Of a stretch of DNA of 64,000 nucleotides, positions 19,513 through 38,202 are shown piece after piece. The notes beneath the pieces were generated by a model. The model searched no databases, was not told where the DNA came from, and saw nothing but the letters and a program-made list of their open reading frames with translations. The DNA comes from Candidatus Latescibacterota bacterium. Its GTDB lineage: Bacteria > Latescibacterota > UBA2968 > UBA8231. The position numbers and the translations under genes are program-made. Within the stretch, counting starts at the first letter, position 1. The number at the start of each line of letters is the position of its first letter. Location: positions 2,784,001-2,848,000 of the forward strand of contig OZ252098.1 in the NCBI GenBank assembly GCA_965248355.1, written 5' to 3'.

Positions 19513-19515
19513 CCG

Positions 19516-20758: not shown

Positions 20759-20795
20759 AAAAAAGGGGGGCGAGAATCGGATGATCTCGCCCCCC
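20759..20795 (-). terminator. Rho-independent terminator of 20831..21739
   Basis: GGGGGGCGAGA/TCTCGCCCCCC 11-bp stem followed by a T6 run on the minus strand. Confidence 0.8.
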
Positions 20796-20830
20796 AGGGT
20801 ATCAGCCGTCTCTACGGCAGCGCTGTCACT

Positions 20831-21739: not shown

Positions 21740-21844
21740 TCTCTCTCCTAATATGACTTGACCCGGGGTGAGACTCTCCCTCCCCGGGGAGATGAAGGTG
21801 CGAACGCTCGAACGCTCGCGCCAACAAAGCGGAAAATCAGGAGA

Positions 21845-21873
21845 AATCTACTTCAAGGCCGGCCTCAAGGCAA
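21845..21873 (-). promoter_or_regulatory. Putative sigma70 promoter for 20831..21739
   Basis: Minus strand TTGCCT-N17-TAGATT. Confidence 0.5.
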
Positions 21874-22461
21874 GCACAAAAGCGACCACTCCCCAGGTGG
21901 TGGTCTCACCCGGGGCCGGACTCTCGTACGGGGTCACCTCCGGAGGTCGGCTGGGCGGCCCGTCGAGCCTGGAAAAGCCCGTAACTCGTTGAAAGGCCAT
22001 CAGTTGGATGCGCCTTACATAGCCCCCGGAGAGCCGGTTCGACCCTCGCGTTGGTCGACCGGCAGGGTAGCTGTTCTCGTTCAGGTCGACGACCTGGACG
22101 CCGGTGTCCCCAGCCGCCGTCGGCCGCGGACCTCGGCGGCGACAGTCGGTGAGCATTGCCACGGCCTGATCGGTCCTTGTAATTTTCGGCGGTAGAGCGG
22201 ACGAGACGTCACTGCGCGAGTCACGATCAGCAAGGATGGCTTCGATCTCCGGCAGGTACGAGATCAGGCAGGCCCAGTGGGTCGTCGTCGTTGGCACGGC
22301 GTCCTCGAGTCCCCCCGCTTCCTGCATCTCCTGGATCGTCCTGGAGGAGTCCCTCCTGCGCCTGAAGAGCGTCGCCGGCGAAGAGCTCAACCGCCTCCCC
22401 ACCAAGGCCGGGTGGCAGTACGGCCTGCCGGGCGCGTGATGCGCCGCCCGCCAGGCCCCCG

Positions 22462-24426
22462 ATGACGGCACCTCCGCAGGGGGACCGACACTTGGCGCGG
22501 GACCTGCAGGGGATCCCGGTGCGGGGCATCCTGATCGGGGCCGTGCTGGCCCTGGTGCTCAACGTCTGCGATACCTACGCGACGAATTCGATCCAGGGGT
22601 CGTACCTGACCCTCAACTTCAGCACCCCCGCCGCCCTCTTCTTCTTCTTCTTCCTCGTCCTGGCCAGCGGCGCCGTCGGCCTCCTCCACCGGTGGCTGGA
22701 GCTGACCCGGGCCGAGCTGATCACGATCTACGTCATGCTGCTGGTGGCCTGCTGCATCCCCGGCATGGGCTTCACCCAGTTCATCATCCCCTGCCTCCTC
22801 GGGTCGACCTACTACGCCACGCCCGAGAACAACTGGGACGAGCTCTACAACCAGTACATCCCGGAGTGGATGATCCCCCGCGGCGAGAACGTGGCCCGCT
22901 ACTTCTTCGAGGGGATGCCCGAGGGAGCCTCGATCCCATGGGGAGCCTGGGTCGTGCCTCTGGCCCTGTGGTTCGGCTTCTTCCTCGCCCTCGGCTTCGC
23001 CATGATCTGCGCCATGGTCGTCCTGCGCAGGCAGTGGGTCGACAACGAGAGGCTCAGCTACGCCCTGGTGCAGGTGCCGATGGAGATGATCCAGCGGGAG
23101 GAGGGCGGCGCCGTGGGCCGCTCGTTCTTCACCAACAAGGTCATGTGGCTGGGCTTCGCCATCTCCTTCCTGCTGCTGAGCGTCAACGGACTGCACTCGT
23201 ACTTTCCGGAGGTTCCGCGCTTCGAGCGCATCGTGGGCCTGCCCCTGTTCGGCAACACGTGGCTCAGCTTCTGGTTCAGCCCGCCGTGGACGGGGTTCTT
23301 CTACTTCGTCAGCCTCGACATCTCGGCCTCGATCTGGGTCTTCTACCTTCTCGTCAGGCTGCAGCGGGGCGTCTTCAACGTCCTCGGCGTACGCAGCACA
23401 CAGCGGATCGACTTCTACTCAGGAAACGACCCCTTCCTCGCCCACCAGGGTCTCGGGGCGATGATCGTCTTCGTCGTCATCGGTCTGTGGGTGGCGCGGC
23501 GGCACCTGCGCCAGGTGGTGGCGAAGGCCCTCCGCGGGGCCCGCGAGGTCGATGACAGCGGCGAGATCCTCACCTACCGGCAGGCCTTCTTCGGGCTCCT
23601 CGCCGGCCTCCTGATCGTCGCCGTCTGGCTGTCGGCGATCGGCCTTCCCTTCCCGGTGGCGGTGCTCTTCGTCTTCGGCGCCATGGTCCTGTTCCTGGCG
23701 CTGACGCGGGTCGTCGCCGAGGGCGGCATCCCGGCCATGCGGCCTCCCCTGATGACGTCGACCTTCGTGATCTCCACGGTCGGCACCTCCGCCATCGGCG
23801 CCCAGGGCCTGGTGGCGCTCGGCTTCTCCTACGGCTGGCACTCCGAGATCCGCTCCTTCGTCATGTCCTCGGTCGCCAACGGACTCAAGATGAGCGAGCT
23901 GATCCGCGGCCCGAAGCGCCGGCTGTTCTGGGCGATTATCGTCGCCATCCTGGTCAGCCTGGCGGGCTCCTCCTATGTCACCCTGGTCATGGCGTACGGG
24001 CACGGCGGCATCAACCTCAACCCCCTGTTCTTCTCCTGGCAGTCCACCCACTTCGGGCCCATGGACATGTCCCCGCGCATCTCCGCCGCACCCGAAGGCC
24101 CGCGGTGGGACGCCGTGCGGTTCATGCTCCTCGGGGGAGGCGTGATGTCGGCGCTCATGTGGGCGCGCCACCAGTTGGTGTGGTGGCCCCTGAGCCCGCT
24201 CGGGTTCACGATCGCCGCCAACTGGAAGACGGGCCACATCTTCTGCAGCGCCCTGCTGGCCTGGTGCCTGAAGTATCTGATCCTGCGCTACGGCGGCGTG
24301 CGTCTCTACCGCAGCCTGCGGCCCTTCTTCCTGGGCCTGATCCTGGGGGAGATCGTCGGCGCCGGGGTATTCCTGGTGATCGACTACCTCACTGGCACCA
24401 CGGGCAGCTTCCTGACCCAGATCTGA
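22462..24426 (+). CDS. Full-length DUF6785/DUF6784-like polytopic membrane protein (putative transporter)
   Basis: 654 aa, many TM segments; ELITIYVML, RRQWVDNERLSY, WWPLSPLG, PFFLGLILG. Confidence 0.8.
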   Translation: MTAPPQGDRHLARDLQGIPVRGILIGAVLALVLNVCDTYATNSIQGSYLTLNFSTPAALFFFFFLVLASGAVGLLHRWLELTRAELITIYVMLLVACCIPGMGFTQFIIPCLLGSTYYATPENNWDELYNQYIPEWMIPRGENVARYFFEGMPEGASIPWGAWVVPLALWFGFFLALGFAMICAMVVLRRQWVDNERLSYALVQVPMEMIQREEGGAVGRSFFTNKVMWLGFAISFLLLSVNGLHSYFPEVPRFERIVGLPLFGNTWLSFWFSPPWTGFFYFVSLDISASIWVFYLLVRLQRGVFNVLGVRSTQRIDFYSGNDPFLAHQGLGAMIVFVVIGLWVARRHLRQVVAKALRGAREVDDSGEILTYRQAFFGLLAGLLIVAVWLSAIGLPFPVAVLFVFGAMVLFLALTRVVAEGGIPAMRPPLMTSTFVISTVGTSAIGAQGLVALGFSYGWHSEIRSFVMSSVANGLKMSELIRGPKRRLFWAIIVAILVSLAGSSYVTLVMAYGHGGINLNPLFFSWQSTHFGPMDMSPRISAAPEGPRWDAVRFMLLGGGVMSALMWARHQLVWWPLSPLGFTIAANWKTGHIFCSALLAWCLKYLILRYGGVRLYRSLRPFFLGLILGEIVGAGVFLVIDYLTGTTGSFLTQI

Positions 24427-24443
24427 CAGAAAGGGGATTCGAG

Positions 24444-25919
24444 ATGGCCAAGAGGAAGACAGCGAAAGCGAAGGCGGCGACGAAGGAAGGGGCGGCCGGC
24501 AGGGCCCGGGCGGGGGCGGCCCCGGCGGGCGTCGTCGAGCTGGGCGAACGGCGCGAGCTGTTCGTCGACGACTACCTGATCGAGCGGCTGTCGGGCGTCG
24601 AGTTGCGCCTGCAGAAGCCGGTGCCGCGGAACGTGGCGCTCGACCACGACGTGCCGTGGGAGGGCAACACCAGCGCCTACCACACGGTCTTCCAGGACGG
24701 CAAGCTGTTCCGCGCCTACTACCGCGGATCCCATTACAACCCGCCGGGCAAGTACAGGCCGGTCGTGTGCTACGCCGAGAGCCGCGACGGCATCGAGTGG
24801 CACCGGCCGGAGCTGGGCCTGGTCAACTACCAGGGCTCGACGCGCAACAACATCATCTGGGACGGCCCCGGCTCGCTCAACTTCACGCCCTTCCGCGACT
24901 CCAACCCGGACTGCCGGGAGGGCGAGGAGTACAAGGCCCTGGGCAGCCCGAGCTCGCGCACCCATGACGAGCAGGCCCTCTATGCCTTCAAGTCGGCGGA
25001 CGGCGTGCATTGGAGCCTGCTGTCGGAGAAGCCGGTGATGGATCACACCGTGGGCGCCAATCTCTTCGACTCGCAGAACCTGGCATTCTACGACCCGGGG
25101 CGCGGCTGCTACGTCGAATACCACCGCGACTCCATCTACCCCGGCGGCGTGCGTTTCCGCCAGATCATGACCTGCACCTCGAAGGACTTCCGTCGGTGGA
25201 CGAAGCCGCAATTGCTCGACTTCGGCGACGCGCCCCTCGAGCACCTCTACACGAACGCGGTGACGCCCTACCACCGGGCCCCGCACATCTACATGGGCTT
25301 CCCCAAGCGCCTCGTGCCGGACCGCCGGATGCCGGGCAACCTGGCCGGCGGCGTGTCGGACGGCTTGTACATGACCAGCCGCGACGGCCTGCACTTCAAG
25401 CGCTGGGGCGAGGCTTTCGTGCGGCCCGGGCTGCAGCCGGAGCGCTGGGAGAACCGCAACAACATGACCGCCTGGGGCATCCTGGAGACGGCCAACGACC
25501 TGCCCACGGCGCCGAAGGAGCTGTCGATCTTCACCAGCGAGGGATACTACCGCGGCGAGGCCTCCAGGCTGCGGCGCTTCACGCTGCGCCTGGACGGGTT
25601 CGTCTCGGCCAATGCGCCGCTGAAGGGGGGCGAGCTGATCACCCGGCCCGTCACCTTCGCCGGCGGCGCCCTGAGCCTGAACACGAGCACCTCCGCCGCC
25701 GGCTCCGTGCGCGTCGAGATCCAGGACGCCCACGGCAAGGCGCTCAAGGGACACACCCTGCGCGACTGCGACGAGATCTACGGCGACGACCTGGAGCGCA
25801 CCGTCACCTGGAAGGGCGCCGCGGACGTGAGCGGCCTGGCCGGCCAACCGGTGCGCCTGCGTTTCACGCTCAGCGACGCCGACCTGTACAGCCTGCGGTT
25901 CACGGCGCCGCCGGCCTGA
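24444..25919 (+). CDS. Beta-propeller glycoside hydrolase-like protein
   Basis: RBS then ATG 24444; ELFVDD, YAESRDGIEWHRPELG, FDSQN, RLDGFVS, DLYSLRF. Confidence 0.75.
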   Translation: MAKRKTAKAKAATKEGAAGRARAGAAPAGVVELGERRELFVDDYLIERLSGVELRLQKPVPRNVALDHDVPWEGNTSAYHTVFQDGKLFRAYYRGSHYNPPGKYRPVVCYAESRDGIEWHRPELGLVNYQGSTRNNIIWDGPGSLNFTPFRDSNPDCREGEEYKALGSPSSRTHDEQALYAFKSADGVHWSLLSEKPVMDHTVGANLFDSQNLAFYDPGRGCYVEYHRDSIYPGGVRFRQIMTCTSKDFRRWTKPQLLDFGDAPLEHLYTNAVTPYHRAPHIYMGFPKRLVPDRRMPGNLAGGVSDGLYMTSRDGLHFKRWGEAFVRPGLQPERWENRNNMTAWGILETANDLPTAPKELSIFTSEGYYRGEASRLRRFTLRLDGFVSANAPLKGGELITRPVTFAGGALSLNTSTSAAGSVRVEIQDAHGKALKGHTLRDCDEIYGDDLERTVTWKGAADVSGLAGQPVRLRFTLSDADLYSLRFTAPPA

Positions 25920-25933
25920 GAGGGGCCAATCCC

Positions 25934-27355
25934 ATGACCCGACACGATCGCGCCGACCAAGGATCCGATGGAACGCAGGTCTTCTGTGACGATGCCATGT
26001 TGGCGCATACGGAAAACGTCTGGCAGTCCCTCCATCACCCCGCCAAGCACGAAGACAACCCCGTGCTCGTGCCCGACAGGCCCTGGGAGGGATACCTGGT
26101 CTTGCAGCCGGGGACGGTCATCCACGACGAGCAGGATGGGTGCTTCAAGATGTGGTACAACACCCAGCCGAGTCGTGACAAGCCGGAGGCCGGGAAGAAC
26201 CTCTGCTACGCCGTATCGGCCGACGGCGTCCACTGGGAGAAGCCGGAGTTGGGTCTGGTTGAGTTCGGCGGATCGACGGCGAACAACATCCTTTTCCAGG
26301 AGGTGGAGTGGACACATTGCGTCCTGAAGGACGAGGCGGAAACGGATGCGGACAGGCGCTACAAGCTGCTCTACTGGCCGCCGGGCGGTACGGGAATCCA
26401 CGGGGCCTTCTCGGAGGACGGAGTCCACTGGAGACCGTGCGAGGACAACCCGATCGTGCCTCGTCGGGCCACGGGCGATACCTTCAGCGTCATGCGCGAT
26501 CCGGCGTCGGGTTGGTACTGGCTGTATCACAAGACTCGGACCCCGGCCCGGCCGATCCGCATGATCTCCCGCATGGTGAGCGAGGACTTCGTGCGCTGGA
26601 GCCCGACCCGCCGCGTGCTGGCTCCCGATGCCTTCGATCCGCCCGATACTCAGTTCTACGGGCTGTCCGCGTTTCCCCATGCAGGCCAGTACCTGGGAGT
26701 TTTGTGGGTTTACCACACATACCCGCAGACCTTGGACATGCAGCTGGTCTCCAGTCGCGACGGCCTGCGTTGGGACCGCACGGCCGACCGCAAGCTGTTC
26801 ATGCACCTGGTACCGACCAACAGTTACCGGGGCGGGGCGTTCGATTGCACGCAGATTTATCCCGTCTCGGCGCCGGTGGAGAAGGACGGAAGGCTCTGGT
26901 TGTTCTACTCCGGCTTCACCGTGCCCCACAATTCCCTCGCCGAGGACCATGATGGGCGCATCGGCCTGGCCACCTTTCGCCTGGATGGCTTCTGCTCTCT
27001 GGATGCCACGAGTCCGGGATATGCTCTCACCCGCCCCTTCACCTGGAAGGGGAACCGGCTGCGGCTGAACGCGGCCACCAGCGGCCCGGCTCCCGGGGCC
27101 CCTGCAGACGGCGGCGGCGGGATCACGGTGCAGATCGAGGATGAGCAGGGCCAGGTCCTTCCCGGGTTGGGCGCCGGGCCATGCACCCCGTTCCGCGGCG
27201 ACGAGACGGAGGCCCTCATGGAGTGGGGCGGGCGCAGCGACTTGGGCGAGCTCATGGGGCGGACCGTGCAACTGCGCTTCCGGCTCGAGGATGCGAATCT
27301 GTATTCGTTTCGCGTCTGCCACGGGAGCTTGACGACCCCCGATGGGGCTCATTAG
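25934..27355 (+). CDS. Beta-propeller glycoside hydrolase-like protein
   Basis: NPVLVPDRPWEG, YAVSADGVHWEKPELG, SRDGLRW, RLDGFCSL, NLYSF. Confidence 0.75.
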   Translation: MTRHDRADQGSDGTQVFCDDAMLAHTENVWQSLHHPAKHEDNPVLVPDRPWEGYLVLQPGTVIHDEQDGCFKMWYNTQPSRDKPEAGKNLCYAVSADGVHWEKPELGLVEFGGSTANNILFQEVEWTHCVLKDEAETDADRRYKLLYWPPGGTGIHGAFSEDGVHWRPCEDNPIVPRRATGDTFSVMRDPASGWYWLYHKTRTPARPIRMISRMVSEDFVRWSPTRRVLAPDAFDPPDTQFYGLSAFPHAGQYLGVLWVYHTYPQTLDMQLVSSRDGLRWDRTADRKLFMHLVPTNSYRGGAFDCTQIYPVSAPVEKDGRLWLFYSGFTVPHNSLAEDHDGRIGLATFRLDGFCSLDATSPGYALTRPFTWKGNRLRLNAATSGPAPGAPADGGGGITVQIEDEQGQVLPGLGAGPCTPFRGDETEALMEWGGRSDLGELMGRTVQLRFRLEDANLYSFRVCHGSLTTPDGAH

Positions 27356-27399
27356 GATACCGGCACGTACCGGTTTCCGTCTGTAGAGAGGGCGAATCC

Positions 27400-29349
27400 A
27401 TGCGCTCTTGTCTGCTCTTCTGCATCGTCGCTGGTCTGCTCGCAGGCGACGCCTCGGGTCTAACCCTCATCCGGATCGGCCAGCCCCTCACCGCGGCCGA
27501 GCGGGACAGCCTCGACGGTCTGGGCATCGAGGTCCTTCAGATCCCCTGGACGGCCGCACACGTGCAGGACCAGATCGACGCGGACTCCCTGCAGGCCGAT
27601 ATGCTGATGCCGAGGTTCCTCGGCGAGGACGAGGACATCGCGGCCACGCTGCTGGACAGGGGAGGGAGGGTCTGGGTCGACCACAATATCGGGGTGGGCG
27701 GTGAAAACACCATCGTCGGGCAGGTGCTCATCGACCAGGATCCCACCACCGCCTACGTGTGGCCGGCGATCGAGGCGGACCGGTTCGGGACGAGGGGCTG
27801 GTGGGGGAAGATCACCTTCGATCTCGGCGGGCAGTTCCTGATCAAGGAGGTGCGGTTCCGGCCCCTCGCGGACCGGTCCGACCACTACCTGGAGACCTTC
27901 GCCCTGGGCGTCAGCGACTTGGTCTTCGACACCTACCGGGTCCCGTGGTTCTACAGGGAGCGGTGCGGCGTCCCGTGCGGCGAGCGGGAGGTCGCCTTCG
28001 TCAAGGAGAACTCCGACCACGACATGCGCATCGTGCTGGATCCGCCGGTGACGACCGAGGCCATCCAGCTGCTCGTCACACGCACGTCACCGAGGGAGAT
28101 CGGACTGGCCGATTTCGAGGTCTACGGGGGCGGCTACGTGACCCGGGCCGCGTACGAGTCGGAGGTCGTCGAGCTGCCGGACATCGCCAGTTGGGGGGAG
28201 ATTCGCTGGTCGGGCCGGCAGGATCCCCGGGCTCGCGTCCAGATCCGCTCGCGGATGGGCACCGATCAACAGCCGGACATCTACTGGGAGGTCCGTCCCG
28301 ACCTGCTCGACAGGGTCGAGTTCCTCGGCGGCGGCGGCGATCTCAGCGTGACGGAGTACAGGGCCCAGTACGACAATCTCGCGGGACATCTCAAGCCGCA
28401 GGACGTCGAGAGTCAGGTGACCCCCGACATCGAGAACTGGAGCTTCTGGTCCCGCATCTACCCCTTCGATCAGCCCGGGGTCGAGATCGTGTCGCCGGGG
28501 CCGAGGCAGTACTTCCAGATCCGCGTGGACTTCTCGTCGAGCACGGTGGAAGACGGGGGCCGAATCGACTTCATCGAGGCCATGGCCTCGAAACCGATGG
28601 CGCGCGAGCTGGTGGCGGAGATCTTCCCGGTGACGACCCGCGTCGGCGAGGTGACCCGGTTCACGTACTACGTGAACCCCACCATCCGCGCCGGCGACAA
28701 CGGCTTCGACGGGCTGGAGATCTCGACGCCTTTCAGGGTCGTCTCGGTGGACTCGCTGCGCATCGACGCGGTGGATGAGCCCTTCACGTGGACCCGGACC
28801 GGGGACGGCTTCGAGGTCCTGCTGCCGCGGCGGTTGGAGACGACCGACAGCGGGGCTCTGGTCGAGGTGGTCTTCAGGGCCCCCGTGCTGCGCGAGGTGA
28901 GCACCCCCTTCGCCGGTCGGATCTTCGACACCGAAAGGCCGCTGGAGGTACGCCAGCAGGTCAGTCCCGGCGACGCCGTCGCCGAGGTCGACAGCGACCA
29001 GCTCACCGTGCAGGCCCCCCTGAGCGCCTCGTTGCTGTTCTCGCCCCGCTTCGAGCCGAATCCGTTTACACCCAATGGCGACGGGGTCAACGATGTCGTG
29101 CACATCTCCTACAAGCTGCTGCGCCTGACAGCGGCGGCCCCGGTCTCGATCGCCATCCACGATCTCTCGGGCCGCCTCGTGAAACGGATCTACTCGGGGA
29201 ACGATCCGCTGGGAGAGTACGACCGCCCGTGGGATGGACGGGACGAGGCGAACCAGCTCGTCCCCGCCGGGCTGTACCTGTGTCGGATCGAGGCGGACCT
29301 GGAGTCGAATCGGGAGACGGCCGTCGGCGTCCTCTCCGTCGCCTACTGA
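27400..29349 (+). CDS. Secreted protein with discoidin-like domain and C-terminal FlgD-Ig/PNGDGxND domain (paralogue A)
   Basis: Signal peptide; ITFDLGG; WSFWS...SPGPRQYFQ; PNPFTPNGDGVND; IHDLSGRLVK; WDGRD; GLYLCRI. Confidence 0.75.
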   Translation: MRSCLLFCIVAGLLAGDASGLTLIRIGQPLTAAERDSLDGLGIEVLQIPWTAAHVQDQIDADSLQADMLMPRFLGEDEDIAATLLDRGGRVWVDHNIGVGGENTIVGQVLIDQDPTTAYVWPAIEADRFGTRGWWGKITFDLGGQFLIKEVRFRPLADRSDHYLETFALGVSDLVFDTYRVPWFYRERCGVPCGEREVAFVKENSDHDMRIVLDPPVTTEAIQLLVTRTSPREIGLADFEVYGGGYVTRAAYESEVVELPDIASWGEIRWSGRQDPRARVQIRSRMGTDQQPDIYWEVRPDLLDRVEFLGGGGDLSVTEYRAQYDNLAGHLKPQDVESQVTPDIENWSFWSRIYPFDQPGVEIVSPGPRQYFQIRVDFSSSTVEDGGRIDFIEAMASKPMARELVAEIFPVTTRVGEVTRFTYYVNPTIRAGDNGFDGLEISTPFRVVSVDSLRIDAVDEPFTWTRTGDGFEVLLPRRLETTDSGALVEVVFRAPVLREVSTPFAGRIFDTERPLEVRQQVSPGDAVAEVDSDQLTVQAPLSASLLFSPRFEPNPFTPNGDGVNDVVHISYKLLRLTAAAPVSIAIHDLSGRLVKRIYSGNDPLGEYDRPWDGRDEANQLVPAGLYLCRIEADLESNRETAVGVLSVAY

Positions 29350-29350
29350 C

Positions 29351-32032
29351 ATGAGTGTGCACCGGGTGCCAGGGTGGGTCGCGAGTCCGGGGTCGGTCCT
29401 GGTCTGGGTCCTGGTCCTGGCGTGGTCCGCGCCGGGTTGGGGTCAGCAGGGATACAGGAGGGAGGCGAACCGCGTGGTCATCGACGCGCCCACGCAATGG
29501 GAGCAGTGGCAGTCGGCCACGGTCGAGGTCACCGATGCGGGGCTGCGGCCCGGCTTCATCCGAAAGAGCACCAGGCTGGAGGTCGACGGCCAGGAGGTCG
29601 TCGTGCCCGGCGTCAACGCGGCCCTCGACGCGGCCGCCTTCGGCGGGGGTGTGAGAGCCGCCGGCTCCGGTGACGAGAGCGCCGGCGCCCTGATGGACGG
29701 CCGCCTGGACACCTGGTGGGAGCCGGACCCGGGCGACCCCGTGCGCGACTGGTGGGTGCAGCTGGATCTGGGGCGGACGGTCTCGGCCACCCGGATCGTC
29801 CTCAAGTTCGTCGACGCGGAGCTGGGCGACCCCTTCCTCCACTTCAAGGTCACCACCTCACAGGGGGAGCTCAGTCTCGGCCTGCCCATCTTCCGGACCC
29901 GCTACACGACCAACACGCCGGTGAAGGGCCAGCGGGTCTTCGAGATCGACCTGAGGACGCAGTCGCCGACGAAGTGGCCCGTCGTGTACGGCGATTTCAC
30001 GGGCGACGTCATCAATCTCGTCGGCATCCAGGCCACCGGCAGCGACTTCGGCAAGGCCAGGCAGGTCTCCGAGTCCGCGTACGAGGGCCTCCCGCCCGAT
30101 CAACAGGGGGACATCGAGTACTACCGGCTGGACGCCCTGGGCCGGCGGCGGCTCCTGGGCGGCAAGGAGGACTGGGACTCCCTGGCCGGCACCGGCCGGC
30201 AAGGGCCGGTGGTCCACTACCGCCGCGAGCGGCCCCGGCTGGCCGAGGTCGAGGTGTGGACGATCGGCGACAACATCGGCCCGGGCGTGCTGGACCGCGG
30301 GGGCACGCTGACCAGCGTGGACAACACCGGCGCCGAGCCGGCCGTCGTGGACGGCCACTTCTTCGGCGAGCTGGCCCACTGGAGCGCCCTCGGCGGCTTC
30401 AATCCGGACAAGGCCTCGGTATTTCAGTCGCAGGACCTGGAGCGCCAGCTGCTCATCGACCTGGGGGGCGCCTTCTTCCTCGACAACATCCGGGTGCTGC
30501 AGAGAAACCAGGGGTTCGGGCACGTCAAGGCCTTCCCCCAGTACCGCATCCAGCTTTCCGACGGCTCGAGGGTCGCCGGCGGCGGCCTGGCCTGGGAGAC
30601 GGTCGGTGCCGCCGAGAACCTCGACAACAGCCACCAACCGACGAGCCACACGTACAACGACTTCAAGTTCCCCCTCACCAAGGCGAAGTACTTCTCCTTC
30701 AGCTACACCCTGTTCCCCAAGCCGGCGGACTCGGGTACCCTGTCCTTCGGCCTGTCGGAGATCCAGTTCTTCGGGGAGGGCTTCATGCCCGAGGTGGAGA
30801 TCGCCTCCGTCTTCGACGGCGATATCCCCTTCATCGAGCTCGGCAGCGGCGCCCGGAACCTGACCACCATCGACTGGGACGCCGACCTGCCGCCGGGCAC
30901 CGGTCTCGTGCTGCAGACGCGTACCGGCGACACCTTCCTGGAGTTGACCCACTACCTGAAGAAGAACGGGGAGCCGTACCCGGGCACCGACGAAGAGGCG
31001 AAGAAAGCCTGGGGAGAGGACAAGAAGTTCTTCGGCGACAACGCCGTGGGGCCCATCGTCACCGAGAAGCTCCCCGGCAGCGACTGGAGCGGCTGGAGCC
31101 AGCCCTACGAGAGATCCGGCGACCGGATCACCTCGCCCAGCCCGCGGCGCTACGTCGCCATCCGCGCCGTACTCCTCACCGAGGATCCGCTGGCGGCACC
31201 CACCCTGCGCTCGGTGGCGCTGAACTTCGCGCGCCCCGTGGCCAGGAGCCTGATCGCCGAGGTCCTGCCCGCCCGCCTGGAGGAGATCGGCAGCCGGCAG
31301 GCGTTCTCCTACCTCCTCCGCTCGACCTTCGAGGGGGACAGCCGAGGCTTCGACGAGATCCTGCTCGAGGGGCCCGAGGGACTGGAGATGGACCTCGAGC
31401 GGGTCGTCGTCGAGGCCGGCGAGGAGCCCCCGCTCACCTACGAAGCCGGCGACGAGCAGCTCGAGGTGCTGGTGGACGGCTCCGACTCCCTGTGGGTCCG
31501 CCTGCCGGCGCCGGTCGAGGCCGCGGCCGGCGTGGCGCGGGTCGAGCTGCTGTTCGAATGCACTCCCTACACCTACAACAGCTACTTCACCGGCTCCGTC
31601 CGACACTCCGGCTTCCCCGGCTCCTGGCAGGGGGTCGAGGACGGCGACGCCAACGGGATCACGGACAGCGAGACGACGATCGTCCTGGCCTTGCAGCGCG
31701 GCGACGTGCTGGGAGCCGTAGGGCTCTCCAGTGAGGTCGTCACCCCGAACGGCGACGGCGCCAACGACGACCTGGAGGTCCGTTTCTCCCTGATGCGCAT
31801 CAGCGCGCCGGCGCCGGCCACGGTGGCGATCTACGACCTGGGCGGCCGGCTCGTGAAGACCCTCTGGGACGAGCCCCTCCCGGCGGGAGGTCACACCGTC
31901 GCCTGGAAGGGCCTCGACGCCTCGGGTGCCTTCGTGCCACCGGGGATCTACCTGTTGCGGGTCGCCATCGATCTCGACTCCGGGTCCGGCGGCAGCACCC
32001 GGGCCCACCGGCTCGTGCATGTCGCCTACTGA
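29351..32032 (+). CDS. Secreted protein with two discoidin-like domains and C-terminal FlgD-Ig/PNGDGxND domain (paralogue B)
   Basis: Signal peptide; MDGRLDTWW...VQLDLG; LIDLGG; WSGWS...SPSPRRY; TPNGDGAND; IYDLGGRLVK; GIYLLRV. Confidence 0.75.
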   Translation: MSVHRVPGWVASPGSVLVWVLVLAWSAPGWGQQGYRREANRVVIDAPTQWEQWQSATVEVTDAGLRPGFIRKSTRLEVDGQEVVVPGVNAALDAAAFGGGVRAAGSGDESAGALMDGRLDTWWEPDPGDPVRDWWVQLDLGRTVSATRIVLKFVDAELGDPFLHFKVTTSQGELSLGLPIFRTRYTTNTPVKGQRVFEIDLRTQSPTKWPVVYGDFTGDVINLVGIQATGSDFGKARQVSESAYEGLPPDQQGDIEYYRLDALGRRRLLGGKEDWDSLAGTGRQGPVVHYRRERPRLAEVEVWTIGDNIGPGVLDRGGTLTSVDNTGAEPAVVDGHFFGELAHWSALGGFNPDKASVFQSQDLERQLLIDLGGAFFLDNIRVLQRNQGFGHVKAFPQYRIQLSDGSRVAGGGLAWETVGAAENLDNSHQPTSHTYNDFKFPLTKAKYFSFSYTLFPKPADSGTLSFGLSEIQFFGEGFMPEVEIASVFDGDIPFIELGSGARNLTTIDWDADLPPGTGLVLQTRTGDTFLELTHYLKKNGEPYPGTDEEAKKAWGEDKKFFGDNAVGPIVTEKLPGSDWSGWSQPYERSGDRITSPSPRRYVAIRAVLLTEDPLAAPTLRSVALNFARPVARSLIAEVLPARLEEIGSRQAFSYLLRSTFEGDSRGFDEILLEGPEGLEMDLERVVVEAGEEPPLTYEAGDEQLEVLVDGSDSLWVRLPAPVEAAAGVARVELLFECTPYTYNSYFTGSVRHSGFPGSWQGVEDGDANGITDSETTIVLALQRGDVLGAVGLSSEVVTPNGDGANDDLEVRFSLMRISAPAPATVAIYDLGGRLVKTLWDEPLPAGGHTVAWKGLDASGAFVPPGIYLLRVAIDLDSGSGGSTRAHRLVHVAY

Positions 32033-33791
32033 TCGCGCCCGCACGGGCACCGGCAGACGGCCCATCCTGGCGACCCGGGCCGCATCGCGTCGGACAGCCG
32101 TGATCTCCGTCTTCGCCCTCGGACTGGCGGCGGCACCCGCCGCCGCCGAGACGGTCGTCATCGGCGGCCACGGCCCGGGCTCGCGGACCTGGAGCGAGAG
32201 CCGATCGGTGGTCTCGGTCATAGACTTCGACACGAACCCCGGCTTCATACAGCCGTCCCGGCACGGGCCCGAGGACAACATCGCCCTGAACCTGCTGGAG
32301 CGCGGCGGCAGGATCACCTCGCCGAATGCGCGGGTGGTCCTCGAGATCTCCCAGGCCGACCTGGACATTCTGCTGAGCAACATGGTGGACGGCGGCAACG
32401 AGGCCTTCGTGATCCCGGGGGTGGAAACGAGGGGGATCATCTTCCGGGTCGACCTGGGGGAGCGCTTCGGGGTCAACCGGATCCGGTTCTACCCGCGCGA
32501 GGGTTCCGAGGAGGTGTATCTGCGGGGCTACCGGGTTTCGCTGAACGACGGCAGCGAGGAGCAGACGACTCTCGGGGGGCAGCCGAAGATGAGGCTGTTC
32601 ACCGCCGACGACCGCAACTCGGACCCCGTCGTCGACCTCCCCGTCCCGTTGCAGTTCGTGCGTTTCATCGAGGTCCAGCAACTCGTGAGGGGAGCGTGGG
32701 AGATCGACGAGTTCGAGGTCTTCGGCGAAGGCTTCCCCTCGTCGGCGTCGTATCTCTCGGCGGTCTTCGACCAGGGAGAGCCCGCCGTCTTCGGCAGCCT
32801 CTTGTGGGCCGACCAGGTCATCGGTGAGCCGACCAAGGTGAAGGCCACCGTCTCGACGCGCAGCGGCACGACGCCCGATCCCGGCGACACCCTCGCCTGG
32901 AGCGGCTGGTCGCCGCCGTACCCGGCGGGGGTGCCCACGGCCGTCGCCTCACCGGCCCCCCGGCGGTACTGGCAGTTCCACGTCCAACTCCGGAGCACGG
33001 AGATCCTCTCGGCGGCGCTGGTCGACTCCATCGCCGTCGAGGTCTCTCCCGCCCTGGCCGATTCCCTGGTGGCGGAGGTGTGGCCCCAGGAGGCCCTGAT
33101 CGGGCGGACGACCGAGCTGACCTACTGGGTGCGCAGCTACAACAGCCGCGGCTTCGACCAGCTCGACATCGAGACGCAGGCGCCGGTGGAGGTCATCCGA
33201 TCCGTCCAGATCGACGGCAGCGACGTGGCGGCGTGGGACAAGGCGGACATCGACGGCGGCGTCCGGATCAGCTTCCCGAGGATCACCGGCGGCCGGGTGC
33301 TGCGCGTCGTCTTCGAGAGCATCGCCTTGCGATACAATACCGTCTTCACCGGCAGGGTCTCCGACAGCCGGAGACCGCAGGACCTGCCGCAGGCGCTCGT
33401 CCCGGGAGACGTGGCCGCCGACCCCGCCGCCGAGGGCGACGACCTGTCGGTCACCACCCGGTTCGCCGGCCACCCCATCCACGCCGTCGAGGTCGATCCG
33501 GCGCCGTTCTCGCCCAACGGCGACGGTGTCAACGACGAGGCCACGATCACCTACGACATCGTCAACCTGACGACCCGTGTCCCCGTCTCGGCGGTCGTCT
33601 ACGACCTGGCGGGCCGGCGCCGGAAAGTCGTCTACTCCGGCCTCGACGGCAGCGGCCGGTTCGGGAGGCCCTGGGATGGGACCGACGACGCCGGACGGAC
33701 GCTGCCGCCGGGGTTGTACCTGGTGCGCGTGGAGATCGATGCGGACACGGGGACCGAGAGCCGGACGGCGATCGTGCCCGTCGTCTACTGA
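32019..33791 (+). CDS. Secreted protein with discoidin-like domain and C-terminal FlgD-Ig/PNGDGxND domain (paralogue C); start may be GTG 32100
   Basis: Signal peptide ending AAA; RVDLGERF; WSGWS...SPAPRRYWQ; PFSPNGDGVND; WDGTD; GLYLVRV. Confidence 0.75.
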   Translation: MSPTDRARTGTGRRPILATRAASRRTAVISVFALGLAAAPAAAETVVIGGHGPGSRTWSESRSVVSVIDFDTNPGFIQPSRHGPEDNIALNLLERGGRITSPNARVVLEISQADLDILLSNMVDGGNEAFVIPGVETRGIIFRVDLGERFGVNRIRFYPREGSEEVYLRGYRVSLNDGSEEQTTLGGQPKMRLFTADDRNSDPVVDLPVPLQFVRFIEVQQLVRGAWEIDEFEVFGEGFPSSASYLSAVFDQGEPAVFGSLLWADQVIGEPTKVKATVSTRSGTTPDPGDTLAWSGWSPPYPAGVPTAVASPAPRRYWQFHVQLRSTEILSAALVDSIAVEVSPALADSLVAEVWPQEALIGRTTELTYWVRSYNSRGFDQLDIETQAPVEVIRSVQIDGSDVAAWDKADIDGGVRISFPRITGGRVLRVVFESIALRYNTVFTGRVSDSRRPQDLPQALVPGDVAADPAAEGDDLSVTTRFAGHPIHAVEVDPAPFSPNGDGVNDEATITYDIVNLTTRVPVSAVVYDLAGRRRKVVYSGLDGSGRFGRPWDGTDDAGRTLPPGLYLVRVEIDADTGTESRTAIVPVVY

Positions 33792-33824
33792 ACGATCATT
33801 CAAAGGCAGGCAGGGGGGATCGCA

Positions 33825-36533
33825 ATGATGGCCGGTCACGCAGTTCGGGTCATGATGTGTGCGTCACGGTCGCCGGCCATCGGCTGCGCCGTGGTCCTGG
33901 CGCTGGCGCTGGCCTGTACGGAAGCCGATGCGCAGGGGCTCGACCGCCGGCTGACGGGTACCCGCGTAGCCGGCGAGCTCACCTTCCAGCCCACGGGGCC
34001 GGGCGTCCTCTTCGGGGCCCTCGACCCGGCGGTCCGGAAGTGGTACGTGCCGCAGGAGCTGTACCACGATTACCGGTGGAAGTCGTGGGAGTACACCAAC
34101 TACGCCAGGGATCTCTACCAGCGCTACGTGAGCATCAACCGGGAGGGCGACACCTTCTACGACCTCTACGGCAACTACGTCACCCGGGGTTGGCTGATCT
34201 ACGACTGGAGCCAGACGCAGCCGCAGCAGGACGGCAGCAACGTCTGGAAGAGCGCCTATTACGGGAGCTTCTTCAGCAACCTCGTCGTCGCCGCCGACCA
34301 GAAGGGACAGAACCACCTGGCCATCACCATCGGCAACGAAATCCGCTCGACCTTGACGCCCATGACGTTCTCGAAGCCGGCCTTCGACGGCATGCAGATC
34401 GACTACCAGTCCGACAAGTACGAGGTCACGGCGCTGCTGGCGCGCATCAGCTCCCCCGGGGCCGCCGGCCACCGCAACCCGTCGGTGCAGGAGACGACCA
34501 CCTCGACGACGTTGACCGGCGGACGCGCCACGGCCCAGGTGGGCGACTTCGTGAAGCTGGGCGGCACCTACGCGAGCGCCCACAACTCCACCCAGCTCCT
34601 CGACGCCTTCGACGGGAGCCCGCGGAGCGGCTCGATCGTGGGGAGCCAGAACGCCCAGAACATCACCCAGGTCTTCCTGCGGCTCTCGGACGACTCCCCC
34701 GAGGACGACGAAGGCGGTGTGAACCTGTTCGCGTGGGACGTGGTGATCAAGGCCGATGTGGAGCAGGTGGGACCCGATGGAGAGCTGATCGTGGAGAGGG
34801 AGGTCGTGCGCGCGAGCGAGGTGGGCCTGACCGCGACCCCCGAGGGGGGGTTTCAGCGGCTGGGCTACGTGGAGGCGAGCGGCTCCGAGCAGATCGAGCT
34901 GGTCTACGACTTCGCCCTCGCCACCTACCGGGGCCCCGATCCCTCACAGATCAGGGAGCTCACCTTCGAGCTGGCCGTTGCCAACGACTACCGGATCGAG
35001 ATCGCCTCGGACCGGCAGACCGACCGGGCGGGCGACCCCGTCTACCTCCTGGCGGCCCGGGCCGACGGCAACGTCAAGGACGGCTCGAACCTGAGGCTCC
35101 TGCAGGTCCCCTACGGGCTGCCGACGGCGACGGAGATCTTCGGTTTCACCGTGGAGGTGCAGAACCTGAGGGGGTTCAAGCTCTACGGTGAGTGGGACCG
35201 GAGCATAAGTCACCGGAAGTACCCGAACCGGGCCCACACGCGCCACCTGGGGTCCGCCAGCGAAGGCGACGCCTGGATGGTGAACCTGTCGAAGATCGCC
35301 TATCCGTGGTTCGCCTTCGGCGAGGCCTACAGCATGGACCACGACTACAACACCAGCGCCTTCCTGGCCCGCGGCGGGCAGAGCATCGACTACTCCGACA
35401 AGGGCCAGTTCTACTACGAGCTCGTCGATGACAACGACGATCAGGACCGCTACCCGGACTGGCAGCGGATCTACGAGAGCGCCGACTTCGAGATCTTCCC
35501 GGGCTACGACGAGAACGTCGACTTCGTCTCCGACTTCAACCAGAACTCCACCAGGGACCTGCCCAACCTGGTGCCCGACTACGAGGAACCCTTCCTGCGG
35601 TTCACCACCGACCGGCCCGAGTTCCTCTTCGGCGTCGACATGAACAACAACCTCTGGGTCGACCGCTTCGAGAACGACGACGAACCCGACTTCCCCTATG
35701 GCCGGGACCTGCGCGGACACAACGTCTACGCGGGCGCCGACCTGGTCCCGAAGGTCAGGTTCACCCTCGGCCGGACGGCCGAGAGCCTGATCGCCGGCGA
35801 CGGCGACAACAGGACGAACTACGCCTTCTTCACCGTGGAGCAGGACTACGCCGGCCTCGGCAAGCTCCGGTTCTTCGAGAGCTTTCGCCTCGCCCGGGAC
35901 AACATCGCCAACGACCTGCGGCAGTGGTCCGAGGTCGACCGGGGCAACGTGCCGACCATCGATCCCCTGGCGGCCCGGGACACCTGGATCAACTCGACCT
36001 TCTTCAGCTTCGACTACACCCGGATCGATGACCTGACCCTGACCACGAAGGCGAAGTACGACCGCTGGCTCCAGCGGGAGGAGCGGCCGGATCTGCGGGA
36101 CGACTCCTCCTTCTTCGGCTTGATCAACAAGATCGACCACGAGCGCCGCGTCGCCCACGTGATCCTTCAGCCGCGGTTGAAGAACGAGCTGCGCCTGGAG
36201 TCGCCGGCGCTGAAGTCCGACGCCAGGCGCCGCGAGGATACGCTGCTGCTGTCGTTGCTGGCGCGCTGGCCGCTGCTCGACGTGTCGTCCATGCAGGTGG
36301 GCGTGGAGTACACGATCTTCAACCAGTTGCGGGAGTCCGGCACGGCCGTCAGGGAGGGTCTCCTCGACGACTTCACGGAGATCGTCGGCGCGGTGCAGTT
36401 CTCGACCGCCCCCAGCTACCAGGGCTACAGGCTGCACACCAAGATGGGCCTGCGGCTGACGCGGCGAGCGATCGGCGGCGAGACGGAATCCGGCAAGGTG
36501 GCCTTCGCCACCGTCTACGCCGGTCTGCAATAG
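33825..36533 (+). CDS. Large exported protein, putative outer-membrane beta-barrel with acidic Ca-binding-like loops
   Basis: Signal peptide; aromatic-rich alternating strands in the C-terminal third ending ATVYAGLQ; DDNDDQDRYPD, DENVDFVSD, DMNNNLWVD. Confidence 0.55.
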   Translation: MMAGHAVRVMMCASRSPAIGCAVVLALALACTEADAQGLDRRLTGTRVAGELTFQPTGPGVLFGALDPAVRKWYVPQELYHDYRWKSWEYTNYARDLYQRYVSINREGDTFYDLYGNYVTRGWLIYDWSQTQPQQDGSNVWKSAYYGSFFSNLVVAADQKGQNHLAITIGNEIRSTLTPMTFSKPAFDGMQIDYQSDKYEVTALLARISSPGAAGHRNPSVQETTTSTTLTGGRATAQVGDFVKLGGTYASAHNSTQLLDAFDGSPRSGSIVGSQNAQNITQVFLRLSDDSPEDDEGGVNLFAWDVVIKADVEQVGPDGELIVEREVVRASEVGLTATPEGGFQRLGYVEASGSEQIELVYDFALATYRGPDPSQIRELTFELAVANDYRIEIASDRQTDRAGDPVYLLAARADGNVKDGSNLRLLQVPYGLPTATEIFGFTVEVQNLRGFKLYGEWDRSISHRKYPNRAHTRHLGSASEGDAWMVNLSKIAYPWFAFGEAYSMDHDYNTSAFLARGGQSIDYSDKGQFYYELVDDNDDQDRYPDWQRIYESADFEIFPGYDENVDFVSDFNQNSTRDLPNLVPDYEEPFLRFTTDRPEFLFGVDMNNNLWVDRFENDDEPDFPYGRDLRGHNVYAGADLVPKVRFTLGRTAESLIAGDGDNRTNYAFFTVEQDYAGLGKLRFFESFRLARDNIANDLRQWSEVDRGNVPTIDPLAARDTWINSTFFSFDYTRIDDLTLTTKAKYDRWLQREERPDLRDDSSFFGLINKIDHERRVAHVILQPRLKNELRLESPALKSDARRREDTLLLSLLARWPLLDVSSMQVGVEYTIFNQLRESGTAVREGLLDDFTEIVGAVQFSTAPSYQGYRLHTKMGLRLTRRAIGGETESGKVAFATVYAGLQ

Positions 36534-36543
36534 AAAGAGAGAG

Positions 36544-38199
36544 ATGGAGCGTCGAATAGCGAGCGGCCGCGGCCGCTCCCGGGTGGCGGGGCCCCTGTCC
36601 GTCCTGGGGGCCGCTGTCATCCTGTGGAGCGGTTGCGCACGGGAGGAGACCGGGGTGGTGGCCAGGGTCGGGGACAGGGCGATCACCGCCGAGGACGTGC
36701 GGGGTCTCATGGCCAGCCAGCCGGAGAAGGCCCGGGAGGCCGACCCGGTGATGGAGCACCTGCAGACCCTCGTCGACATGGAGCTGCTGCTGCTGGAGGC
36801 GAAGAAGGAGCGCATCGGTGACAGCCCCTTCTTCCTGCGCCGTACCGGCCGCGCCCGGCGGGACAAGCTCGTGGACGCCCTCGAGGCGCGCCGTCTCGAC
36901 GTCACGGTCGCTGACGACGAGGTGGCCCGGTACATCGAAAGGGAGGGCTACAACCGCGCGATGCAGTTGGCGGACATCATGGTCCCGGACCGGGAGACGG
37001 CGGCGCGTGTCCTGCAGCTGATCGAGCAGGGCGCCGACTTCGCCGACGTCGCCCGGAGGTGGTCCGTCAACAAGGAGACGGCCGCCCGGGGCGGCGACAT
37101 GGGCCGGTTCGCGACCCGGCAACAGGTGGTCCCGGTCCTGGCCGGCGAGCTGTTCACCTTGCCCGTGGGCTCGGTGACGAAGCCGATGCGGGTGGGGAAG
37201 GTCTACTCGGTCTTCAAGATCCTCGCCGAGTCCTCCTTCGAGCCGACGCCGCAGCAGCGGCAGTTGGTGGCGCAGGAACTGCAGCGGAGCAAGCTGCAGG
37301 CGGCGAGGGACTCCCTGGTCGCCGCCCTGGGGCAGGAGTACCGCCTGGAGAGGGATGAGGACGGCCTGGCCGGGTTCGTCGAGGCCCTGGGGCGCGGCGC
37401 CGAGGCCGCCGGCGACCGGGTCCTCTACCGCTACGACGGCGGCGAGATCAAGGCGGCCGACGTCGTCGAGGCGGCCAGGAGCATCAGGGGGGACATCCTG
37501 GCCGGCGTCGGTGACGCCGGGGAGTTGGCGGCCCTCGTGGAGCGGTGGGTGGTGCCCGATGTCCTGCTGATGGAGGCCGCTCTCCGCGAGGGGATCGACC
37601 GCGAGGACGAGATCGTCCGGTGGCTCGCAGAGTTGCGGAGGCAGACGCTGATCATGGGACTCCGGGGGCGGGTCCTGCAGCAGAGGGCGAAGGTCACCGA
37701 CACCGAGGTGCGGCAGTACTTCGAGGCCAACCGGGACCGCTTCCTGCACCCGGAGCAGATCGAGGTGGAGGAGATCCTCGTGGAGACCGAGTCCAGTGCG
37801 GCCGACCTGCGGCGCCGGATCGAGGCGGGCGCCGACTTCGGAGCCCTGGCCCGGGAGCACTCGGTGCGGTCGCTGGAGATCCGCGACGAAGAGGGTCGAT
37901 TCCACGTGCACCAGTACGAGGCGCCGCGGTTCGGGGGCTTCGTGGAAGCCGTCGTCGAGGCCGGGACCGGGGACTTGACCGGACCGGTCGAGGTCGAGGA
38001 GGGCTACTCCGTCTTCCGCATCCTGTCGCGGGAGCGGCGGCGCGAGACCTGGGAGGAGGCCAGGGCGCGGGCCACCTCCCAGCTCCGCCGGCGGACCCAG
38101 CGGCAGGCCTTCAACGAGTACCTGGAGGAACTGCGGGAGCGCTACGACTCGCAGGTCGAGATCCGCTCCGACGCCCTCGAGGCCGCCTTCGCGGGCTGA
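36544..38199 (+). CDS. Parvulin-type peptidyl-prolyl isomerase lipoprotein (PrsA/SurA-like, two rotamase domains)
   Basis: Lipobox LWSGC; GADFADVARRWS...GGDMG; GADFGALAREHS...GPVEVEEGYSVF. Confidence 0.8.
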   Translation: MERRIASGRGRSRVAGPLSVLGAAVILWSGCAREETGVVARVGDRAITAEDVRGLMASQPEKAREADPVMEHLQTLVDMELLLLEAKKERIGDSPFFLRRTGRARRDKLVDALEARRLDVTVADDEVARYIEREGYNRAMQLADIMVPDRETAARVLQLIEQGADFADVARRWSVNKETAARGGDMGRFATRQQVVPVLAGELFTLPVGSVTKPMRVGKVYSVFKILAESSFEPTPQQRQLVAQELQRSKLQAARDSLVAALGQEYRLERDEDGLAGFVEALGRGAEAAGDRVLYRYDGGEIKAADVVEAARSIRGDILAGVGDAGELAALVERWVVPDVLLMEAALREGIDREDEIVRWLAELRRQTLIMGLRGRVLQQRAKVTDTEVRQYFEANRDRFLHPEQIEVEEILVETESSAADLRRRIEAGADFGALAREHSVRSLEIRDEEGRFHVHQYEAPRFGGFVEAVVEAGTGDLTGPVEVEEGYSVFRILSRERRRETWEEARARATSQLRRRTQRQAFNEYLEELRERYDSQVEIRSDALEAAFAG

Positions 38200-38202
38200 T
38201 CC

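Follow-up and report, generated by a model that had tools for sequence, protein, structure and literature searches.

The window analyzed here is a stretch of 64,000 nucleotides (positions 2784001–2848000 of contig C1) from a Candidatus Latescibacterota genome, which is assembled as a single contig of 5.5 Mb with 68.9% G+C and is 95.7% complete. Its main feature is a run of eight genes that appears to encode an undescribed cell-envelope system, including an inner-membrane permease, two hydrolases, three exported proteins with similar C-terminal tails (tail proteins A, B, and C), a predicted outer-membrane beta-barrel, and a parvulin (Table 1). The gene calls come from our own codon-score script. 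A first-pass annotation had described these eight co-oriented genes and their seven gaps (17, 14, 44, and 1 nucleotides, an overlap of 14 or a gap of 67 depending on the start of tail C, 33, and 10 nucleotides), and rechecking the open reading frame (ORF) coordinates confirmed both. The overlapping ATG of tail C is found in four of 10 orthologous loci. The run stops at 38199 because the next genes (38203–41414) are on the opposite strand. All eight genes of that inventory stood, but it had missed a nearby gene for a CBM9-like protein (CBM, carbohydrate-binding module) and the paralogy of this locus to others in the genome, 13 loci in all. The arrangement is not due to chance, because the PNGD motif of the tails occurs 22 times in the six frames of the genome and 28 of the 29 tail genes are located within 15 kb of a barrel gene.

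Table 1. Genes and protein regions at the locus and its flanks, in positions of the window (aa, amino acids).
Position	Strand	Size	Feature
20831-21739	-	302 aa	Exported CBM9-like protein, C-terminal SWGRIK motif; conserved core member
22462-24426	+	654 aa	DUF6785+DUF6784 inner-membrane permease, predicted OPT/Yellow-Stripe fold
24444-25919	+	491 aa	Signal-less five-bladed-propeller protein, glycosidase/phosphorylase-like (GH130/GH32/GH117-like); accessory
25934-27355	+	473 aa	Second propeller glycosidase-like paralogue; accessory
27400-29349	+	649 aa	Exported tail protein A: lectin-like body and PNGD/FlgD-Ig C-terminal domain
29351-32032	+	893 aa	Exported tail protein B: F5/8 type C (CBM32-like) domain and PNGD/FlgD-Ig tail
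32019- or 32100-33791	+	590/563 aa	Exported tail protein C
33825-36533	+	902 aa	Predicted outer-membrane beta-barrel, about 24 strands, undescribed family
33933-34133	+		Barrel residues 37-103; pLDDT <50; candidate plug or partner-binding segment
34593-35117	+		Barrel residues 257-431; all-beta domain, an insertion separating strands 7 and 8 (DSSP of model)
35337-35708	+		Barrel residues 505-628; acidic loop after strand 11, 26% D+E, DxDxN-type motifs
36544-38199	+	551 aa	Lipoprotein parvulin (SurA/PrsA-like) foldase; conserved core member
38203-39918	-		ASPIC/UnbV FG-GAP protein (Pfam); frequent convergent neighbor
39915-41414	-		TPR protein (Pfam) beside the ASPIC gene; frequent neighbor, start uncertain

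For the three exported paralogues, the proposed PNGDGxND motif was read in every tail (FTPNGDGVND, VTPNGDGAND, and FSPNGDGVND). These proteins have hydrophobic N-terminal segments and end in V-x-V-A/V-Y. Scores for CHU_C are at or over the cut-off of 27 bits in tails A and C (33.3 and 27.2) and below it in tail B (21.8), scores for TIGR04131 are below the cut-off of 35 in all (values including 22.3 and 13.8), and FlgD_ig is over its cut-off in tails A and B (34 and 36 bits). Tail B also contains an F5_F8 domain over the cut-off (39 bits), and tail C has a weak F5/8 match. Furthermore, the profile of the tail family matches CBM32/F5-8 structures (E 7e-15) and FlgD Ig domains.

The CBM9-like protein of the window matched no Pfam or NCBIfam model. 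Its profile match to the CBM9 of a Thermotoga maritima xylanase (1i82) is weak (E 0.005), and one of its paralogues passes the Pfam CBM9_1 cut-off. The gene is displaced and inverted in the window, whereas elsewhere it is usually located directly upstream of tail A; orthologues (54–64% identical) precede tail A in four other loci of the group orthologous to the window locus and follow the barrel gene in a fifth. Another CBM9-like paralogue in the window (12743–13876, forward strand) has a terminal PKD domain instead of the SWGxIK motif, and in a different genome (G011) a stand-alone barrel gene has a similar gene as its divergent neighbor (L146:8573–9640). Across the genome, the C-terminal motif [ST]W[GA]x[IVL]K is present in 33 called genes for exported proteins, many of which are CBM9-like. 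The motif is a candidate third sorting signal, in addition to the 28 PNGD tails and the 48 FlgD-type tails that end in a hydrophobic run plus R or K.

The 902-aa protein is predicted to be an outer-membrane barrel of a family without known placement. Neither this protein nor eight further members of its family matched Pfam or NCBIfam models, the family profile found nothing meaningful among Protein Data Bank (PDB) sequences and no match to SprA or other barrels at E <1, and a cluster look-up of 10 distant representatives returned almost no names. Relatives numbered 1504 among 8000 scored candidates (1009 representatives after clustering at 50%), and the closest ones, 87–88% identical, are from Candidatus Latescibacterota. 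In the AlphaFold2 model (145-row alignment; predicted local distance difference test [pLDDT] 88.1, predicted template-modeling score 0.86), the secondary structure gives about 24 strands, namely 23 long ones and a shorter first one. Most strands have alternating hydrophobic and polar faces, and short turns alternate with long loops. Judging from this alternation, the inserted domain (residues 257–431) is predicted to be extracellular. The acidic loop is the best conserved region (mean identity 66% among close and 40% among distant rows of the alignment) and, judging from its DxDxN-type motifs, probably binds calcium. The poorly modeled segment near the N-terminus (residues 37–103) has a mean identity of 63% in the rows of close paralogues (class I) and is present in 12 of the 43 distant rows.

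All top fold matches of this model are outer-membrane barrels, which, together with the amphipathic strands, supports the earlier suggestion of a membrane barrel. The best template-modeling (TM) score by query length is 0.27, and comparison with VIA gave a best Z of 13.8 with root-mean-square deviations (rmsd) of 6–13 Å and no row above generic barrels, a lack of close matches that does not prove a new fold. BtuB (Z 12.4, rmsd 10.5 Å, 340 residues) is tied with unrelated barrels. A lead to DUF6029 (Atlas, 0.88) was not confirmed, as the PF19494 matches of the genome are located at another gene. The first-pass annotation had likened the barrel to PorP/SprF, the partners of type B cargo in type IX secretion (T9SS), and this likeness was not borne out. 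As described in the accessible text of one source, PorP/SprF shuttles are 14-stranded barrels that anchor cargo (PMC9143113). The window protein has about 24 strands and 902 rather than about 300 aa, and the Pfam scan gave no PF11751 match. Because of this strand number and the lack of a close solved relative, the barrel is neither PorP/SprF nor a detectable SusC. A complex prediction for the barrel (866 aa) and the last 128 residues of tail C scored 0.00 and, having been run without controls, is uninformative either way.

The permease matches DUF6785 (E 1e-132) and DUF6784 (E 1e-28) in Pfam. Its AlphaFold2 model (pLDDT 93.7) returned barley Yellow Stripe 1 alone in Foldseek (7wst/7wsr; E 2e-8, TM 0.64–0.71), and VIA aligned 548 residues with 7wsr (Z 23.0, rmsd 3.9 Å), the next match having a Z of 5.4. 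A placement in an OPT cluster of the Atlas (0.77) provides a lead only. The Pfam scan gave no PF03169 match, and the family profile found none among PDB sequences. Taken together, the model supports the transporter nature proposed earlier for DUF6785 and predicts an OPT/Yellow-Stripe fold. According to the available portion of a family survey, OPT proteins are uptake porters for peptides and iron chelates, the prokaryotic members were uncharacterized, and one subcluster is predicted to act on oligosaccharides (PMC3061005). The window contains a second DUF6785 permease (1–1388, forward strand, starting 576 nucleotides before the window) that is 96% identical to the locus permease and lies 23 kb upstream; after it come genes for two exported proteins without assignment and sugar-nucleotide genes. 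A second, near-identical copy is present in close relatives (L053 and L054) as well, located there downstream of the locus.

The two propeller proteins lack hydrophobic N-terminal segments, as expected from their description as signal-less, and are 29% identical to each other. They fall below every family cut-off in Pfam and NCBIfam (the second with GH32N at E 0.0016; GH, glycoside hydrolase). The profile of their family matches beta-1,2-mannoside phosphorylases (GH130, E 9e-14) as well as GH32 and GH117 structures, with E-values from 1e-13 to 1e-5. After the CBM9-like gene and on its strand (14000–20634, reverse) come genes for a further paralogue of the propeller glycosidases, a PcRGLX-like lyase of 1395 aa, and a propeller protein, and another PcRGLX-like gene at C1:4415171 lies beside a permease and a tail gene. 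These genes may hint at rhamnose/uronate glycans. The last gene of the run encodes a two-domain parvulin (Rotamase, E 3e-19 in Pfam) with a lipobox-like WSGC, in agreement with its annotation as a lipoprotein peptidyl-prolyl isomerase; the lipobox-like motif is shared by all five parvulin paralogues of the genome.

The locus is one of 13 in its own genome, which together hold 28 barrel-family genes. The genome also encodes 29 tail-family proteins, 26 DUF6785 permeases, 26 propeller hydrolases, and five such parvulins. The only tail gene far from a barrel (C1:695098–697017) lies between transposase-like ORFs and is a copy 94% identical to the one at C1:357616. Loci with barrels 35–45% identical to that of the window have tails, a parvulin, and a CBM9-like protein of 300 aa ending in SWGxIK, and those with barrels 23–28% identical encode, in addition to three barrels, a DUF4159 membrane protein and a 1083-aa TPR protein, accompanied in three of them by ExbB. 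The sister locus at C1:216457–240083 contains barrels 35% and 45% identical to that of the window, a PorV-like barrel (233211–234200), and a 1097-aa TPR protein, along with ExbB, an ExbD-like gene, and a gene for a DUF4159-like membrane protein. The genome has another PorV-like copy at C1:909307–910242. Two barrel genes are in pieces (C1:359546–363438 and 2469301–2473369, the latter around an insertion-sequence-like ORF). The absence of TonB, SusC/SusD, and ABC genes claimed for the locus holds among the eight genes (Pfam and NCBIfam), but the paralogous loci encode ExbB/ExbD and the DUF4159 membrane protein; across the phylum, such genes were found at sister barrel loci in four families.

For comparison among genomes, we used the best 80 of 613 confirmed barrel loci, 61 of which have complete 10-kb flanks. 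Among these 61, the CBM9-like gene is present in 56, the parvulin in 51, the permease in 39, the ASPIC gene in 22, and the hydrolase in eight. Based on barrel identity, the loci form several groups and two singletons. In group X1, which is orthologous to the window locus, the permease is present in 19 and the hydrolase in eight of 23 loci. The permease is present in all 11 loci of the sister group X3, in all eight of X4, on the opposite strand, and in one of four in X5. In total, 30 of the 34 loci in X1 and X3 have a permease, of which 29 are 63–94% identical to that of the window and one is cut by the flank. It is upstream of the barrel in some genera and downstream in others. Conservation of gene order was upheld in part: the order of three tails, barrel, and parvulin is maintained and the permease stays with the barrel, while the full eight-gene order is limited to close relatives. 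The hydrolases are accessory and lineage-specific rather than a conserved part of the locus as first annotated, given their presence in only eight of the 61 loci; those beside close relatives are 84–86% identical to the window's, and two more distant ones are 43% identical.

Phylogenies of the two membrane proteins were compared. A permease tree of 54 sequences (26 from this genome and 28 from 23 chosen loci) was inferred by a quick IQ-TREE run under LG+G4, with support from the Shimodaira-Hasegawa-like approximate likelihood ratio test (SH-aLRT) only. A single clade (SH-aLRT 100) unites the X1 and X3 permeases with that of the window and its 96% copy; it leaves out 24 of the 26 paralogues of this genome, and the X4 permeases are placed elsewhere. 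In a tree of 48 barrels (from 36 of the 61 loci, plus 12 of this genome), those of X1 and X3 form one clade (SH-aLRT 99) with matching subgroups. Moreover, single assemblies have several X1/X3 loci and, at every one of these, a separate permease belonging to this clade (L073, L080, and L102 in OZ244561.1; L072, L082, L085, and L103 in OZ220690.1). One permease clade is co-inherited with one barrel clade despite rearrangement, and this co-inheritance is the contribution of the window locus.

These patterns bear on the hypothesis that an insertion in this lineage placed a permease-hydrolase cassette beside a barrel-tail cassette and that the run of eight genes has no joint function. The lineage-specific hydrolases, the CBM9-like gene displaced as after an insertion, and the 96% permease copy with other neighbors are consistent with such a history, and so is a promoter-like site just before tail A, the only site found by the promoter scan (0.8 expected, thus not above chance; no terminator was found on the forward strand). 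However, the orthologous permease stays by the barrel in other genera, at a different position, and has been duplicated together with it, such that this explanation suits the hydrolases and not the permease. We regard it as very improbable.

Some RNA data are available as assembled contigs from four metatranscriptome runs of one study, picked for containing the locus. The contigs (pieces of 400–1750 nucleotides) cover all 30 bins of positions 20501–40400, and some of them span the junctions of hydrolase 2 with tail A, of tail A with tail B, and of the barrel with the parvulin; among the pieces listed, none bridges permease and hydrolase. A control stretch gave shorter and patchier pieces with some empty bins, under a stricter likeness cut-off (95 versus 90). 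The contigs provide a weak hint that the locus is transcribed, and contigs of this kind cannot show a single transcript. In all four runs, those over the CBM9-like gene (20800–21825), which are about 96% alike, have a depth of 188–320 compared with about 5–15 over the eight genes, although contig depth cannot rank genes.

Across 168 genomes of the phylum, the barrel was found in 107, the PNGD tail in 106 (E up to 1e-15), SprA in 160, and DUF6785 in 154. Tail and barrel occur together in 104 genomes, while three have only the barrel, two only the tail, and 59 neither. Families f3 and f4 lack both in all 53 genomes; SprA is present in 52 of these, along with many DUF6785 copies. These counts indicate that the coupling between tail and barrel is tight and that the permease link is clade-specific. 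In families f10, f8, and f13, the gene order is tail, a PorV-like barrel (about 310–350 aa), one to three giant barrels, and a TPR gene, followed by ExbB/ExbD in f10 and f8. The PorV-like label is weakly backed by Pfam (FadL E 1e-5, and PorV E 5e-4 on one of three scanned). One genome (G099) has 127 barrel profile segments, corresponding by eye to about 50 places among the matches listed, versus three tail matches. With 28 barrel genes in the genome studied here and this excess over tails in G099, the barrels appear to have multiplied like substrate-specific transporters. Most of the G099 barrels lie next to catabolic genes, and sulfatase, rhamnosidase, and esterase genes surround the clusters examined there.

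The tight coupling could be explained by a surface display platform, in which the barrel, like PorP/SprF, anchors or assembles T9SS-exported lectin-like tails for adhesion or substrate tethering without any transport, and the permease is a mere neighbor in a catabolic island. The near-perfect co-occurrence of tail and barrel, their joint absence from f3 and f4 (which keep SprA), and the tail gene found in all of the best 80 of 613 loci argue for it, and the large predicted extracellular domain and the acidic loop would suit docking. According to two studies (PMC12618676; PMC9143113), the genes for type B cargo and for PorP/SprF are usually neighbors, and their products bind each other; in Flavobacterium, nine of 12 type B cargo genes adjoin an SprF-like gene and require their cognate shuttles (PMC12618676). 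However, the excess of barrels over tails in G099 is difficult to reconcile with a role as cargo anchor, and nine of the 10 clusters examined there have no PNGD tail nearby. In addition, a separate PorV-like barrel right after the tail gene fills the shuttle role in distant families, and a pure anchor needs neither about 24 strands, a linked ExbB/ExbD motor, nor a dedicated permease clade. We consider surface display unlikely, though it is the strongest of the competing explanations.

The wider genome was searched for secretion and uptake genes. The presence of T9SS parts, which the first-pass annotation had left to a genome search, was established for PorV, with two matches, and for SprA, with a 2067-aa frame that matches SprA_N (E 3e-30). 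At C1:426938–433123 and 4989383–4994324 lie SprA and, next to PorV, a gene of 1260 aa. Profile searches for PorP/SprF and GldM gave no match in the genome, with positive controls likewise silent. SusD (PF07980) had no match in this 95.7% complete genome, while the Bacteroides thetaiotaomicron control matched. TonB-dependent receptors (PF00593) gave 22 matches elsewhere in the genome and none on the window barrel, and a single TonB_C gene is present elsewhere. In the accessible part of an early genome study of the phylum, the only routes described are porins without specificity and, for B12 and iron, TonB-dependent import (PMC4454575).

The barrel may alternatively be an export or assembly pore through which the tails are secreted or polymerized, acting as an accessory translocon or in the manner of an usher, with the parvulin as periplasmic chaperone and ExbB/ExbD replacing a missing Gld motor. 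Ushers have 24 strands. This usher-like strand number, the weak fold matches that include FimD/PapC, LptD, and SprA, the dedicated foldase in 51 of 61 loci, and the lack of a GldM match in the genome (a search with no working control) are compatible with such a pore. Nevertheless, the fold matches are generic (TM no higher than 0.27; Z no higher than 13.8), SprA is already present in 160 of the 168 genomes, and stand-alone barrels occur beside glycosidases, sulfatases, and permeases without cargo genes. Because the permease link is also left unexplained, this hypothesis seems improbable.

Several characterized systems share parts of this organization. Polysaccharide utilization loci with SusC/SusD and TonB-dependent transporters are similar in the paralogous expansion of barrels, the surface glycan-binding proteins, the permease and glycosidases nearby, and the ExbB/ExbD found at some loci. 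TonB-dependent transporters are barrels of 22 strands closed by a folded N-terminal plug. The window barrel has no PF00593 match, and its model has about 24 strands, an inserted domain, an acidic loop, and no resolved N-terminal plug. Moreover, the genome has no SusD match, the surface proteins have T9SS-like tails rather than lipid anchors, and the permease has an OPT fold in the model. T9SS type B cargo with PorP/SprF (SprB-SprF and PG1035-PorP) is similar in the CHU_C scores at or over the cut-off in two of three tails, the adjacent barrel gene, and the SprA and PorV of the genome. It differs from the window tails, which are below TIGR04131 and have a full FlgD-Ig motif and V-x-V-x-Y ends, and in the strand number of the barrel (14 in PorP/SprF in the available text of PMC9143113). 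For OPT/Yellow-Stripe-like proteins (PF03169; barley YS1, 7wsr, and 7wst), the likeness extends over the whole chain of the predicted model, but identity is 12–13%, and the DUF6785 paralogues (about 26 per genome) are set among glycan-type genes. Finally, the partner-plugged barrels MtrB, LptD, the FimD/PapC ushers, and SlpA are of the same size class and gave the longest structural alignments with the window barrel, yet TM is at most 0.27, identity is at most 11%, and the loci lack genes for multiheme cytochromes, LptE, and pilus chaperones. By inference, the system would work like a SusC/SusD locus, but its members are assigned to neither SusC, SusD, nor PorP/SprF.

We therefore favor, with moderate confidence, the hypothesis that the locus is a co-inherited cell-envelope cassette for importing a specific large or modified solute, comparable to SusCD uptake but built from different parts. 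This reading is based on the barrels multiplied beside catabolic genes, the lectin-type caps, the proton-driven motor at sister loci, and the co-inherited permease with an importer fold. The solute would be bound on the cell surface by the exported CBM32-type and CBM9-like proteins, cross the outer membrane through the predicted barrel, and reach the cytoplasm by way of the predicted OPT-fold permease. The tails may be exported via the SprA translocon of the genome with a PorV-like shuttle encoded elsewhere, and the parvulin may fold the barrel or the tails. The outer-membrane step could be energized in trans by the ExbB/ExbD/DUF4159 motors of sister loci, and cleavage of the glycoside after import could be the task of the two propeller enzymes, presumably recruited in the lineage of the window. 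An oligosaccharide or glycoconjugate is the most probable substrate, and a less probable one is a peptide or metal chelate of the kind taken up by characterized OPT proteins.

Several observations weigh against uptake. The window locus itself has no motor gene, and a TonB-like S-x3-H membrane motif is present in only two of five DUF4159 proteins. The gating of the barrel is unexplained, since the model has no TonB-type plug and residues 37–103 are poorly modeled. The permease is absent in all 13 loci of group X2 and within 10 kb in L071, L074, and L075; at the level of families, all 13 genomes of f10 have barrels and none has DUF6785, while all 56 genomes of f2–f4 have DUF6785 and none has a barrel. 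The 34 loci of X1 and X3 are mostly from one family and not independent, and linkage with shared descent alone produces tree congruence, such that the Mantel correlation between barrel and permease (rho 0.82 for 21 loci; 0.83 for nine, one per subclade) is expected and carries little weight. In this genome, a permease lies within 12 kb of seven of 13 barrel loci (1.65 expected, p 0.0005), an enrichment that speaks for uptake, but the threshold was chosen after seeing the data (six of 13 at 10 kb). Hydrolases are not enriched near barrels (three of 13, p 0.21) or permeases (three of 26, p 0.08). The 10 barrel clusters of G099, which also count toward uptake, have, within 6 kb, a hydrolase in five, a permease in four, a type-A-tailed protein in four, and a PNGD tail in one, but these regions were hand-chosen rather than random.

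Beyond the locus, the ASPIC family is found in 18 of the 23 loci orthologous to the window locus. Farther downstream, the SelB elongation factor (Pfam) is encoded at 44979–48328 on the reverse strand, and the gene upstream of it is presumably selA. A gene for a 3111-aa repeat-rich protein starts at 63695 on the forward strand and extends past the window end.

A broader claim, which we put forward only tentatively as a possibility, is that these loci represent a new class of energized outer-membrane importers, with a barrel of about 24 strands that has no sequence kinship to TonB-dependent transporters, T9SS-exported lectin caps in place of SusD, an ExbB/ExbD motor with DUF4159 in place of TonB as transducer, and a dedicated OPT-fold permease, as an independent counterpart of the Sus system of Bacteroidota with dozens of copies per genome. 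To our knowledge, nearly all large outer-membrane importers known so far are TonB-dependent transporters. Literature searches (DUF6785; Latescibacter with type IX secretion), with partial coverage of subscription journals and supplements outside their scope, found no published description of the system, and for DUF4159, under the same coverage, only the Pfam database paper. If true, an importer of this kind would explain how an uncultured glycan-degrading phylum feeds without SusCD, as the barrels occur in 107 of 168 genomes with up to dozens of copies, and it would show sorting tails of the T9SS kind in use beyond Bacteroidota, where SprA and PorV are present and the search for the Gld motor, with its control silent, gave no match. 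It would also give testable roles to three families, namely the barrel, DUF6785, and DUF4159, for which the window locus offers a natural trio of barrel, permease, and enzymes for finding the substrate.

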